DNA of 33,218 bases from an uncultured Clostridia bacterium (lineage in GTDB: Bacteria; Bacillota; Clostridia; TANB77; CAG-508): contig CAOPQH010000001.1 of the NCBI GenBank assembly GCA_948505485.1, positions 1 to 33,218 on the forward strand, given 5' to 3'. Positions 19,829-24,445 of this stretch are shown piece after piece. Position numbers and translations under genes: made by a program. Numbering within the stretch: position 1 is the first letter of the stretch; every line of letters begins with the position of its first letter. Below the pieces are notes generated by a model. The model had not been told where the DNA came from. It was given only the letters and a program-made list of their open reading frames with translations, and searched no databases.

Positions 19829-19860
19829 CGCTCATCTTCATAATTTTATATATTATTTCT
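19829..19860. repeat. left copy of a perfect 32-bp inverted repeat
   Basis: cgctcatcttcataattttatatattatttct is the exact reverse complement of 24414-24445. Confidence 0.9.
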
Positions 19861-19908
19861 GATATAATCAGTAAATCTTAAAACAATAACGATTATATAA
19901 TTTTAGTT

Positions 19909-21696
19909 TTACTCTGTTGTTAGTTTGCAGTACTTCCAAGTTGTTCCATCATCTTGCAAATTGTTTGCATATATATCATATGTTGTTCTGTTCATAGAGT
20001 ACCTTTCTCTTCCTAACGCCATATAATACAGTTTAGCAATGTTCTTTTCATTACTATTTGGTGATGCTGCTAATCCTTTTACATATTTTAATATATCTGT
20101 TTCTTCTACTCCATTTCTGTTGTTTACTATACATTCATAGCATGCAAAGTGATTTTTGGGATAATAGTACTTTGTTTCTAATGTATCTCTATCTATAAAA
20201 CTTCTTCTTTCAAAATTTATATTAAAAACTCCTTGTTCTAAACTGTTTTCGTTTTTTATATGTTCAGAATTAACTTTATGATATTGTTGATTTATTGTTC
20301 CTTCATTATTTCCTTCTGTTGTTATATATATTGAGCCTTCTTCTACTACTTCTTTGTTTTTGTTATTCACTACAACAGAATATCCATTATACATTTTTCC
20401 ACCAATTGATATTCCCTGCATAAAACTTATCATTGATATATTATTTATTATACTATACCAGTCCGTTTCTGAAAGTGTTGGCATCTGAAAATCTGTTGTT
20501 GAGTCTGTATAATTATTAAAATTTGTTATTGCAACTGATAAATTTCTTTGTAATGTATATCTTATTACAGCTGTTCTGTGTTCATTAAAATTTGAAGACG
20601 CATCTTCAATTAAATTATTGGCATCTTCTGCAAATATCTTATTAGTAGTTCCTGTAAAACCAGCAAGACTAATATTACTATTATTATCTCCACTACCATA
20701 TTTTTTATAAATTGGATTATCTCCATCTTCTGTATATGCATCTGCAAACGTTAAGCTCGCTAATGTATTGTTACCTCTAACTTTATCAGTAAATGCCTTC
20801 GCTAATTTATAATAATTATAAGCAGAATCATTATTTTGTATCTTTTCTTTATAGTAATCTTTAGTCTTGCTATTTGTAATTAACTTTTTCTCACCACTTA
20901 TAATTGAAAACACTTCGTCATTTACGCTATTATAATAATATTTTGTTCCATTTATTTGCCTATAAGGAAGTTCATCTCCGTTTATGTTTTCATCTAAAAT
21001 ATTTTCTTTCAAATCATTATCACTTATTTTTTCGTTTTTAGCTATTTCAATACCATTATATGTTATATCGTTATTATTTTCTTCTACTCCATCTAGCAAA
21101 TATCCACCTATATTCCAATCTTCTAGCGTATTATTGTTTCCTTTAACTTTTCCTTGTATTGTTATATAATTATCAAGTGAATATGTTATAACAAAATCGC
21201 TTTTATCATCTGGTTTATATCTACAACTATAATAAACATATGGCTTTAACCCATACATTTTTTCTCCATCTTGATATTTAGAACCTTCCTTTAATTTTAT
21301 CCTATCTTGTGTAGTATTATCTATGTTTATAACATTTTTTAAAGGAGTGTATATATAAAATCCATCATACATTGTATAAACTAATGCTGGCACATAATAT
21401 TTAATTGAATCCTTATCTCCTTCACTTATTTTAAAATTCTCTGAAACAGAATTAAAAAAAGTATCAACAGACGCTTCTATATCCCTTATCTTAGAAGTCG
21501 CAGCATCAGATGTAGAATCATTTAAACTATTTATTTGATATGCCTTAATAGCATCATATGTAGCAGTATTCAACTTAGAATCATATGACGTTTGCAAACT
21601 TATCGTCTTTATCTGATTACCTGTATATGAAGATATTATAATAGATATAGGTAAAATAATAATAACAAAAATTACTGCTAAACTCTGTAATTTCAT
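19909..21696 (-). CDS. large protein with an N-terminal anchor helix, last gene of the pilus-like locus
   Basis: 595 aa. It has an N-terminal hydrophobic helix (MKLQSLAVIFVIIILPISIIISS), and the rest is an Asn/Tyr/Thr-rich domain that is probably extracellular. It has its own promoter and a GGAAG RBS. Confidence 0.7.
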   Translation of the reverse strand: MKLQSLAVIFVIIILPISIIISSYTGNQIKTISLQTSYDSKLNTATYDAIKAYQINSLNDSTSDAATSKIRDIEASVDTFFNSVSENFKISEGDKDSIKYYVPALVYTMYDGFYIYTPLKNVINIDNTTQDRIKLKEGSKYQDGEKMYGLKPYVYYSCRYKPDDKSDFVITYSLDNYITIQGKVKGNNNTLEDWNIGGYLLDGVEENNNDITYNGIEIAKNEKISDNDLKENILDENINGDELPYRQINGTKYYYNSVNDEVFSIISGEKKLITNSKTKDYYKEKIQNNDSAYNYYKLAKAFTDKVRGNNTLASLTFADAYTEDGDNPIYKKYGSGDNNSNISLAGFTGTTNKIFAEDANNLIEDASSNFNEHRTAVIRYTLQRNLSVAITNFNNYTDSTTDFQMPTLSETDWYSIINNISMISFMQGISIGGKMYNGYSVVVNNKNKEVVEEGSIYITTEGNNEGTINQQYHKVNSEHIKNENSLEQGVFNINFERRSFIDRDTLETKYYYPKNHFACYECIVNNRNGVEETDILKYVKGLAASPNSNEKNIAKLYYMALGRERYSMNRTTYDIYANNLQDDGTTWKYCKLTTE

Positions 21697-21723
21697 AAAA
21701 ACTTCCTTTCTTGCCTCTTGAAT

Positions 21724-21751
21724 ATTATACAGCCTTTATATCTTTTTGCAA
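21724..21751 (-). promoter_or_regulatory. near-consensus promoter for the 595-aa gene
   Basis: Minus strand: TTGCAA (21746-21751), 16-nt spacer, TATAAT (complement of 21724-21729). It directly abuts repeat copy 4. Confidence 0.5.
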
Positions 21752-21754
21752 CAT

Positions 21755-21923
21755 TTTTAGCTTTGCCTTAGGAGCTCGGGCGATTACTAATCGCCCCTAC
21801 ACTGGTTTTGAAGCTGTTTTGATACATTTTCAATATTATAGAGTAGTCACGCGTGTGTATAGCACTTTTCGCTTGAGCCTGACGAAAGCGAAAACGTCCT
21901 ATACACAGGTAGCTTGGCGGCTA
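21755..21923 (+). repeat. interspersed structured repeat, copy 4 (complete, inside the pilus-like locus)
   Basis: A hairpin gggcgatt-act-aatcgccc, the copy-1-type linker, then tagagtagtcacgcgtg, outer stem gtgtatag/ctatacac, inner stem ttttcgctt/aagcgaaaa, loop gagcctg, and tail caggtagcttggcggcta. Confidence 0.85.
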
Positions 21924-21935
21924 CATTAATAATCA

Positions 21936-21964
21936 AATAGCTTGTAATAAAATTACAAGCTATT
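21936..21964 (-). terminator. hairpin after the 178-aa gene
   Basis: Perfect 13-bp stem aatagcttgtaat / attacaagctatt with a 3-nt loop, 14 nt after the stop. The downstream T-run on the minus strand is weak. Confidence 0.45.
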
Positions 21965-22514: not shown

Positions 22515-22561
22515 TTTTTATTCCTCCTTAAGATGTAAAATTGACATCCATTTTAATTACT

Positions 22562-23296
22562 TTATTTCATACATACATATGTTATTATTCTTCTTTTTGT
22601 TTTATTAGCATCACTAATTGGTTTTTCTTCTACGTCTCCATATAATGCTGATATTGAAGAATCTTCGTCTGTTTCAATGTCTTCATCATAGTAAGTTCCT
22701 ATTAACTCACAAAATTTATTTCCTACAATTGTATCATATAGACTTTCTTCTCTTAATGATGTATATAATTGAGAACCTGTACCACCCATAAAGTTAGTTT
22801 GAAAATAGTCCTTAGTAGGTTTTTCACTATACAATAAATAAGTTATAAATTCTCTAGCTCTATCTGCTCCTATATTTAGTGACTTTAAATCTATTTTATT
22901 ATTTTCAATAGTTATATTATTATTATTTTCTCCTGAATTCCATCCTGAGCCATCTTTTTTCTTTTGAGCATATATTCCTTTATTTTTAAATTGATCTGTA
23001 CCTTCTTCATCTGCAAATACTATTACTAAATTTTCTTCATATGCTCTATATAATGTTGGTATTATTGTTTCAGCTCCAACAGTTCTAGTAACTATTTTTT
23101 CATTACTTGCATCAACGTCTTGTAACAATTCGTTATCTGCGTCTATGTAAGTAGTGTCAAATGTAGAATCTGACCTTTCCATTATCATTTCTGATGTTGC
23201 TCTTGCTTGTCCAAAAGAATGTATACTAATGGATAATGCTAAAACAAATACTAATACACTAAATGCCATTATTAGCGCTTCACTTGCATTCTCCAT
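22562..23296 (-). CDS. MENAS(K/E)AL-family pilin-like protein (paralog 4)
   Basis: 244 aa with AGGAGG as RBS. N-terminus MENASEALIMAFSVLVFVLALSISI. Confidence 0.6.
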   Translation of the reverse strand: MENASEALIMAFSVLVFVLALSISIHSFGQARATSEMIMERSDSTFDTTYIDADNELLQDVDASNEKIVTRTVGAETIIPTLYRAYEENLVIVFADEEGTDQFKNKGIYAQKKKDGSGWNSGENNNNITIENNKIDLKSLNIGADRAREFITYLLYSEKPTKDYFQTNFMGGTGSQLYTSLREESLYDTIVGNKFCELIGTYYDEDIETDEDSSISALYGDVEEKPISDANKTKRRIITYVCMK

Positions 23297-23339
23297 AGTA
23301 TGACCTCCTAAAATTTAAAATTACATATCTTTTTTATTC

Positions 23340-23792
23340 TTATGGGTTCGTTGTTTTATCACCAGATGGTGAACTACCAGGTGATGAATTACTAATTGAT
23401 ATTGTTGAAACTAATCCTTTATTCTTACCTTGATTACTATATGTAATTTCTACTATATATGTATTAGCTGCTTTTATATTGCTAGGTATTTGCGTTATTG
23501 TTTCATTCACTGTAGATTCTCCTATTCCTTTTATTCCTACTTTTCTTTCTTCATTTTTTTCATCTGAATTACTTGTTATTACTTGTTGATAAAGGCTTCT
23601 TACTTGCGCTCCCTTTACAGTTCCAGCATATTGTTCAAATTTTGCATTAAATGATGTTTTTTCTGCATCACTCATTGCGTTATTATTTACAACTCCTGCT
23701 GCTTGGTTATATATCATTATACCAAGTGAAATAATTAATATTGATAATAATATTGCTCCTGCAATAATTAATGCTTTACTTGCATTCTCCAT
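23340..23792 (-). CDS. MENAS(K/E)AL-family pilin-like protein (paralog 3)
   Basis: Start set at the ATG at 23792 (AAGGAGG 8 nt upstream), giving MENASKALIIAGAILLSILIISLGIMIY. The ORF-track start at 23855 adds 21 residues with no RBS. Confidence 0.6.
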   Translation of the reverse strand: MENASKALIIAGAILLSILIISLGIMIYNQAAGVVNNNAMSDAEKTSFNAKFEQYAGTVKGAQVRSLYQQVITSNSDEKNEERKVGIKGIGESTVNETITQIPSNIKAANTYIVEITYSNQGKNKGLVSTISISNSSPGSSPSGDKTTNP

Positions 23793-23869
23793 AATAAATT
23801 CCTCCTTAAATTTTAACTTTTGTTTATTTATACAGATTAAGTTATTCTTAATCAAATTTAATATCTAGT

Positions 23870-24298
23870 TTATTGTTGTATTTGTTCAAATAACAAACTC
23901 TTTATTCTTTTATTTTTGTGATATTCTATTTTTGTACATTTGAATTTTATTATATTAAAATTTTTTACAAATTTATCTATACCACCATTATATATTGTTT
24001 CCATATCATATGTTGTATCATTATCTGACATATATATTTGAATTTTTATTGAACTTTGCTCATTTTCTATGTATTTTCCTTTGTTGTCTTTTTCTATGTT
24101 ATTTTTTGTATTATTATCTATTGCTTTATTTATTAGTGTAGCTAGGTTTGCTCCTTCTAGTTCATTTTGATAGTATTGCTCATATTCGTAATTTTCTTTT
24201 TGTAATTGATTGTATTTTGATTTGTAATTTGTATAAAAATTAAACATCAATACTAATATTACTATAATAATAACAAAAAATATTACTATTTTCTTCAT
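23870..24298 (-). CDS. small protein with an N-terminal anchor helix, unknown function
   Basis: 142 aa with AAGGAAG as RBS. N-terminus MKKIVIFFVIIIVILVLMFNF followed by a soluble domain. Confidence 0.55.
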   Translation of the reverse strand: MKKIVIFFVIIIVILVLMFNFYTNYKSKYNQLQKENYEYEQYYQNELEGANLATLINKAIDNNTKNNIEKDNKGKYIENEQSSIKIQIYMSDNDTTYDMETIYNGGIDKFVKNFNIIKFKCTKIEYHKNKRIKSLLFEQIQQ

Positions 24299-24413
24299 TT
24301 TTCTTCCTTTTCATTTTAACATAATAGATTATTTAATTCAATAGTTTTTTTTTACTAATTTTTGGTTTATTGTAATTTTTGTTACAATTCACAGCCGATT
24401 TAATTTTTTTATA

Positions 24414-24445
24414 AGAAATAATATATAAAATTATGAAGATGAGCG
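24414..24445. repeat. right copy of a perfect 32-bp inverted repeat
   Basis: agaaataatatataaaattatgaagatgagcg is the exact reverse complement of 19829-19860. Degenerate similarity continues for about 20 nt on both sides. Confidence 0.9.

Follow-up and report, generated by a model that had tools for sequence, protein, structure and literature searches.

A perfect inverted repeat in a Clostridia pilus-like operon probably reflects two copies of a small palindromic repeat element

Introduction

The window analyzed here, a complete NCBI contig of 33,218 nt with ~26% G+C (CAOPQH010000001.1, from an uncultured Clostridia bacterium), carries a divergent Tad/type IV-filament-like operon that runs on the minus strand from ~32871 to 19909. 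The operon encodes an ATPase that weakly resembles TadA-family ATPases, and it includes several "MENAS(K/E)AL" pilin-like genes, for which no Pfam or NCBIfam model matched. Downstream of the operon lie small genes, spoIVB, an AAA_14/DUF4143 gene, murC, spoVG, and pth. The five distal genes of the operon lie between the arms of a perfect 32-nt inverted repeat, an arrangement in which a first-pass annotation of the sequence saw a possible invertible or mobile cassette. Here we argue that the arms are probably ends of a complete and a truncated copy, oppositely oriented, of a new palindromic repeat resembling the miniature transposable elements with inverted repeats known as MITEs. That the five pilus genes form a block able to invert or move is not supported.

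The loci compared with the window all come from metagenome-assembled genomes of uncultured gut Clostridia. The sister strain is represented by the ENA contig NODE_913 of ERZ14650998 (49.7 kb; loci L001 and L089), and further loci by L090 (ERZ14651017), L091 (SRR35899507), L007 (SRR33727307), and L088 (Logan assembly of ERR3199642), the last being an independent assembly that is 100% identical to the window over 24564-26557. Gene order is unchanged between L001 and the window, with DNA identities of 94-97% in housekeeping genes and ~84% in pilin genes. The pilin-like genes with the lower identity occupy 23628-26076, the higher values being those of the flanking housekeeping and assembly genes, and the 176-aa pilin retains ~73% protein identity to its sister-strain counterpart. 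This local divergence suggests diversifying selection or allele exchange among the pilin genes.

The 32-nt inverted repeat and a third match

The sequence CGCTCATCTTCATAATTTTATATATTATTTCT is found at 19829-19860 on the plus strand (arm 1) and at 24414-24445 on the minus strand (arm 2) with 0 mismatches, exactly as the first-pass annotation had reported, and no further match occurs in the window when up to 3 mismatches are allowed. The accompanying claim that such a match is not due to chance is borne out, as 0 of 100 dinucleotide-preserving shuffles gave any match. The bracketed content was also described correctly: genes of 142, 150/171, 244, 178, and 595 aa (19909-24298, minus strand), together with one copy of another repeat family. 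A repeat search extends the pair of arms to 49 nt at 90% complementarity (19829-19877/24397-24445). The weaker flanking similarity that had been described on both sides is present on the inner side of each arm, where it continues for ~17 nt toward the bracketed genes, but not on the outer side, where the similarity ends abruptly at ...GAGCG.

A third, partial match had escaped the earlier reading. The 14-nt core AGAAATAATATATA recurs on the minus strand at 24579-24592, inverted relative to arm 2 (24414-24445) and 151 nt away from it; there it overlaps the stop codon of the 176-aa gene. The presence of this third core beside arm 2 indicates that arm 2 is one end of a self-contained element of ~185 nt with inverted repeats of its own. 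Known recombination sites were also considered; in a comparison by eye, neither the sequences of the arms nor their spacing match a dif/Xer site, a hix/gix site, or an integron attC.

Anatomy of the element

The element is non-coding, spans ~185 nt, and has the ends TTTTATAAGAAATAATATATA. Its terminal inverted repeats consist of 14 perfect nucleotides (AGAAATAATATATA) that extend imperfectly to 21-24 nt. The complete copy, hereafter copy 1, lies at 24407-24599 on the minus strand (~185-193 nt when the imperfect outer extension of the terminal repeats is included) and begins within the final codons of the 176-aa pilin gene. Its pilin-side core (24579-24592, minus strand) encodes the last four codons of that gene (R N N I) and supplies the stop codon's first two bases, whereas its distal core (24414-24427, plus strand) joins with 24428-24445 to make arm 2 of the 32-mer. 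Between the two cores lies a 151-nt interior (24428-24578), which is flipped relative to the same site of the sister strain. At its center is a hairpin (24465-24541) with 25-bp arms that are 92% complementary and a 27-nt loop, a feature also present in all three copies in L001. Over its full length the element is predicted to form a single hairpin (-43.4 kcal/mol, z = -6.5), and the same holds for the opposite orientation (-57.4 kcal/mol, z = -5.8). Open reading frames (ORFs) across the copies are short and not conserved, and no Rfam family matched either this element or the second repeat family under gathering and E-value thresholds.

Arm 1 is a stump of the same element. This copy 2 (19829-19877, plus strand) consists of a core at 19847-19860, 18 nt of interior at 19829-19846, and an outer flank of ~17 nt that is weakly similar. 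Its ortholog in the sister strain, L001:11760-11937, continues for ~150 nt of further element where the window diverges after ...GAGCG. A remnant of a diverged copy 2 was sought with nhmmer at 19700-19828, and no significant similarity was found. In place of the rest of the copy, the window has a strain-specific block of ~610 nt (19218-19828): BLAST blocks against L001 end at 19829 and resume at 19217, and BLAST found no counterpart of the block in L001.

Copies among related strains

The sister strain holds three copies of the element within 21.7 kb of L001, all 98-100% identical to window 24407-24599, against 1.2 copies in the 33 kb of the window. The first (L001:7138-7323) follows a 168-aa pilin gene; the second (L001:11760-11937) follows a 575-aa gene, lacks the right terminal repeat, and stands in direct orientation relative to the first; the third (L001:15883-16066) lies between murC and spoVG, a site that is empty in the window. 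Copy 1 of the window is 100% identical over 184 nt to the third of these, and 98-99% identical, on the reverse strand, to the first and second. A diverged copy with 66% identity is found at L006:15681-15858, between convergent spoIVB and murC, where its 29-nt terminal repeats show 93% complementarity. A match to the 14-nt core in L044 lies within a coding region and was set aside as a chance match.

Occupancy of the pilin site varies among strains. The window, L001, L090, and L007 have the element there, and L003, L004, and L006 lack it. L003 and L004, with a 142-aa protein 96% identical to that of the window, instead have a module from a different repeat family behind the pilin gene, and in L006 (142-aa protein 84% identical) there is an 82-nt pilin-side spacer and no element. 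The spacer between the pilin and 142-aa genes measures 276-279 nt here, compared with mostly 9-100 nt in GTDB-derived loci. The differences between filled and empty sites exceed what a clean insertion would leave. The Logan contigs end inside the element, 30 nt (L088) and 29 nt (L091) from its outer edge. Stops at 29-30 nt would be expected of a k = 31 assembly graph when a repeat is shared with other loci, and these breaks at the edge of the element suggest that more copies exist.

The five bracketed genes

The gene order of the distal operon is stable. Among the 79 related loci with at least three marker genes, tadC and the genes for the 142-aa, 178-aa, and 595-aa proteins are collinear and co-directional in every one (79/79), and all five genes share the order and strand of the upstream operon in the window, L001/L089, L090, L003, and L006. 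The 595-aa and 142-aa protein families are both large. The five genes occupy the same position in relatives without the repeat, which leaves the earlier suggestion that the arms are the terminal repeats of an inserted cassette unsupported. Collinearity in 79/79 loci argues that the five genes are ancestral distal content of the operon, not a cassette.

The same comparisons bear on the proposal that the 32-nt arms invert the whole 4.6-kb, five-gene segment in the manner of the Mu G and P1 C segments or shufflons, thereby uncoupling the distal genes from the operon promoter. A perfect 32-nt repeat, or 49 nt at 90%, could in principle permit occasional inversion between the 14-nt cores, whether homologous or site-specific. 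However, the inverted state was seen in none of the 79 related loci or the close strains, the two corresponding copies of the sister strain are in direct and not inverted orientation, and arm 1 is what is left of a truncated copy. Both arms lie between genes or at a stop codon, so inversion would exchange no protein C-termini. Furthermore, inward of arm 2 the distal genes have a conserved promoter-like site of their own and would not be simply switched off. This site, TTGAAT-17-(TG)TAAAAT, lies outside the element and upstream of the 142-aa gene (24313-24341, minus strand); it is identical in the window, L001, L003, L004, L005, L007, and L090, near-identical in L006, and also kept in close relatives without the element. 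Transcription of the distal genes probably has a start of its own.

The resemblance to the Mu G, P1 C, and R64 shufflon systems lies in inverted repeats that bracket several kilobases of surface or adhesion genes. In those systems an invertase gene is adjacent, the repeats lie in coding sequence, inversion swaps protein C-termini, and alternative arrangements are seen. The window locus is without these features, and no invertase gene adjoins the repeat arms. We regard inversion of the five-gene segment as extremely unlikely.

Regulatory content and recombinases

The first-pass annotation had offered a further possibility, namely, that the arms are small promoter or small RNA modules firing outward or inward at the ends of the segment. 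The part of this proposal that stands is that the arms are two copies of a small repeated module; its detail does not. Both arms do contain TATATA with TTTA(C/A)T 17 nt upstream. Yet the proposed -35 hexamer falls outside the repeated sequence, in a flank that differs between the copies and is not conserved at other copies, and the site fails the consensus criteria of the promoter scan, which in any case gave promoter- and terminator-like matches in the wider region no more often than in shuffled sequence. The ORFs at the two arms both start with ATG but have 36 and 7 codons and are unrelated past MKMS, and the lack of an Rfam match likewise gives no sign of a described RNA family. Inside the element, no sigma-70-like or intrinsic-terminator-like site was found on either strand in either orientation. 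That the arms act as promoter or small RNA modules is, on this evidence, very unlikely.

The statement that no invertase gene is visible in the window was inaccurate insofar as the window encodes a 420-aa tyrosine recombinase (5089-6351, plus strand) with Phage_integrase and SAM-like N-terminal domains, 18 kb from copy 1. Its gene adjoins tRNA-Leu(taa) (6428-6516), and this tRNA and an Xis-like helix-turn-helix (HTH) neighbor give it the look of an island integrase, which it probably is. The likely integrated island at tRNA-Leu(taa) covers 812-6516 of the window; besides the integrase it includes the Xis-like gene, of the HTH_17 family (4859-5065), a pemK RNA motif at 4678-4754, and genes of defense-like character (DUF6076, HEPN_Apea, and Schlafen AlbA_2/HATPase).

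Orientation at the pilin site

The interiors of the pilin-site copies in the window and L001 agree at 150/151 positions when one is reverse-complemented and at 64/151 when they are compared directly. Both flanks, the pilin 3' end and the side of the 142-aa gene, keep their orientation, and a single-base G indel beside the core is found at opposite ends in the two strains. This flip of the interior is the reason for an inverted repeat in the window where L001 has a direct repeat. Orientation A is carried by L001, L090, L091, and L007, and orientation B only by the window strain and L088. The L088 and L091 contigs read through the base at which A and B diverge and show no mixed orientation, from which we infer that an A/B mixture is not the cause of their ends. 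The only coding effect of orientation is on the stop codon, TAG versus TAA.

Such observations bring forward a rival explanation, that copy 1 (24414-24592) is a true inverton whose 151-nt interior is flipped between the 14-nt repeats by a recombinase encoded elsewhere. Each flip would alter the RNA behind the major pilin gene, tuning read-through or message stability, and the other copies would be sister switches served by the same enzyme. The exactness of the flip, with unflipped flanks and an indel that travels with the interior, speaks for this explanation, as do the 14-nt inverted repeats around a 151-nt segment and the presence of a tyrosine recombinase gene in the window. That recombinase, however, sits beside tRNA-Leu with its Xis-like HTH gene, a setting typical of an island integrase. 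The missing promoter is not fatal, considering that the flagellar switch of Clostridioides difficile works after transcription initiation via Rho; nevertheless, no orientation-dependent promoter or terminator was found within the element, and its hairpin is near-symmetrical either way, such that little orientation-specific output is expected. Orientation follows strain lineage (A in L001, L090, L091, and L007; B in the window strain and L088), with apparently no mixture in the Logan contigs that span the divergence point. Copies that are 98-100% identical at unrelated sites, variable in presence and sometimes truncated, would be unusual for dedicated switches.

A further consideration is where the window copy came from. 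Copy 1 carries a 7-nt outer extension, TATAAAA, and a single interior single-nucleotide polymorphism that are those of L001 copy 3 and not of L001 copy 1. Given these shared marks, re-insertion or conversion fits no less well than a flip in place, and we read the orientation difference as either of the two. An inverton at the pilin site is, taken together, doubtful.

A broader variant would cast the element as a set of dispersed, recombinase-driven micro-switches, with the pilin copy flipping in vivo and, in strains whose two copies face each other, the same enzyme perhaps now and then inverting the 4.5-kb block between them. Were it true, flipping of the pilin copy would alter the fate of the pilin message or read-through into the minor-pilin genes. 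We hold it to be improbable.

Proposed history and comparison with known systems

On the reading we prefer, that of a dispersed MITE-like repeat, one copy of the element would have settled immediately after the major pilin-like gene and a second after the last (595-aa) gene of the operon, the latter then being reduced to a stump of 32-49 nt by an insertion or replacement of 610 nt. With the interior of copy 1 opposite to that of copy 2, the end they share would read as a perfect 32-nt inverted repeat 4.5 kb apart. The element may spread, or may have spread, through transposition in trans or through its copies recombining with one another. The change of orientation at the pilin site could stem from an infrequent flip between the terminal repeats, or another copy could have been its source, by re-insertion or gene conversion. 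If the pilus operon is affected at all, the effect would be passive, in that a long RNA hairpin 3' of the pilin gene could stabilize the message or impede read-through.

Several observations weigh against this history. No target-site duplication is definable at any copy when the flanks of five copies are compared, and no parent insertion sequence (IS) or transposase with matching terminal repeats was found in the 33-kb window or the fetched loci, the window itself having no transposase gene. An exact 24-mer search found no element in GTDB representative genomes, JGI metagenomes, or IMG/VR viral contigs, and BLAST against plasmid and phage records gave no match to it. The family is documented in a handful of contigs, and its copy counts rest on single contigs. 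Moreover, opposite orientation at the same site and with the same boundaries is the outcome expected of site-specific inversion.

The general properties of MITE-like repeats have been described elsewhere (PMC2229807; PMC10969869). Like the Correia repeats of Neisseria, the ERIC sequences of enterobacteria, and the RUP, BOX, and SPRITE repeats of Streptococcus pneumoniae, the element is a short non-coding sequence, bounded by terminal inverted repeats and able to fold over its whole length into a hairpin; as with those families, its copies are near-identical, intergenic, variable among strains, and placed after genes or between convergent genes. The pneumococcal BOX, RUP, and SPRITE repeats cluster together (PMC10969869), and the element is likewise found beside a second repeat family. 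It is unlike all of these in that no target-site duplication or parent IS was found and both orientations occur at one site, and it has no sequence similarity to described repeat families in the Rfam, plasmid, and phage collections.

A second point of comparison is the C. difficile flagellar switch (Cdi4), a 154-bp segment with imperfect inverted repeats (PMC7446863). In common with the element, it is ~150 bp long, has short inverted repeats, belongs to low-G+C Clostridia, and is located by a surface-appendage operon. Cdi4, however, is single-copy, stands upstream of its operon, is present in both orientations within cultures, and is RecV-dependent; in contrast to it and to the RecV-dependent elements, the present element is multi-copy, lies downstream of a gene, and differs in orientation between strain lineages only. 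No cognate recombinase was found for it, the only recombinase gene in the window being the one at tRNA-Leu. A literature search on MITEs in Clostridia and on invertons at Clostridia pilin genes found nothing specific.

Neighboring features

The strain-specific block that truncates copy 2 encodes a hydrophobic ORF of 38 aa, MVEIALLEITYLLFYGLVGVTIINVALLIIICFLLHRQ, on the minus strand at 19434-19550. This ORF has a strong Shine-Dalgarno sequence and is followed by a hairpin and a T-run. A perfect TTGACA-17-TATAAT on the plus strand (19318-19346) points convergently into the 3' end of this ORF. A search of 1.8 billion representative proteins gave 11 homologs of the peptide at E<=1e-3, of which several measure 38-41 aa. 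Together, these features make 19318-19700 a putative type I toxin-antitoxin-like module.

The second, unrelated intergenic repeat family adjoins or replaces the hairpin element. It occurs in the window at 13949-14154, 15682-15808, 17216-17420, and 21746-21934, and elsewhere in L001 (11 matches), L003, L006, and L002. Two modules can be distinguished, one with the hairpin GGGCGATTGCTAATCGCCC and the other with TATAGAGTAGTCACGCGTG, a long hairpin, and CAGGTAGCTTGACGGCTA. One copy keeps its position, between the 178-aa and 595-aa genes, in the window, L001, and L006. Copies also stand on both sides of the AAA_14/DUF4143 ATPase gene (15857-17101), which is missing from L001, where spoIVB and murC adjoin. 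At L003:5414-6100, a 178-aa homolog is followed by a copy of this family and then by dodecin and spoVA genes, with neither a 595-aa gene nor spoIVB; the junction stems either from rearrangement or from chimeric joining at the repeat during assembly.

Within the operon, the TadA/CpaF-like ATPase is split between a 470-aa and a 187-aa ORF with a 29-nt overlap (28177-30124, minus strand). The split recurs in L001, L090, and the more distant L006, which points to a conserved two-gene arrangement or a programmed frameshift and not to a sequencing error.

Conclusions

For the organism, these comparisons describe a pilus-like operon without a shufflon-like or mobile five-gene cassette, and a false lead is thereby removed. 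They also document a previously undescribed family of small palindromic repeats, together with a second family that co-clusters with it. Repeats of this kind break assemblies, make spurious long-range inverted repeats, and can trigger the heuristics by which invertons are sought. Should the orientation difference between sister strains at the pilin gene stem from active flipping, it could affect pilin expression.

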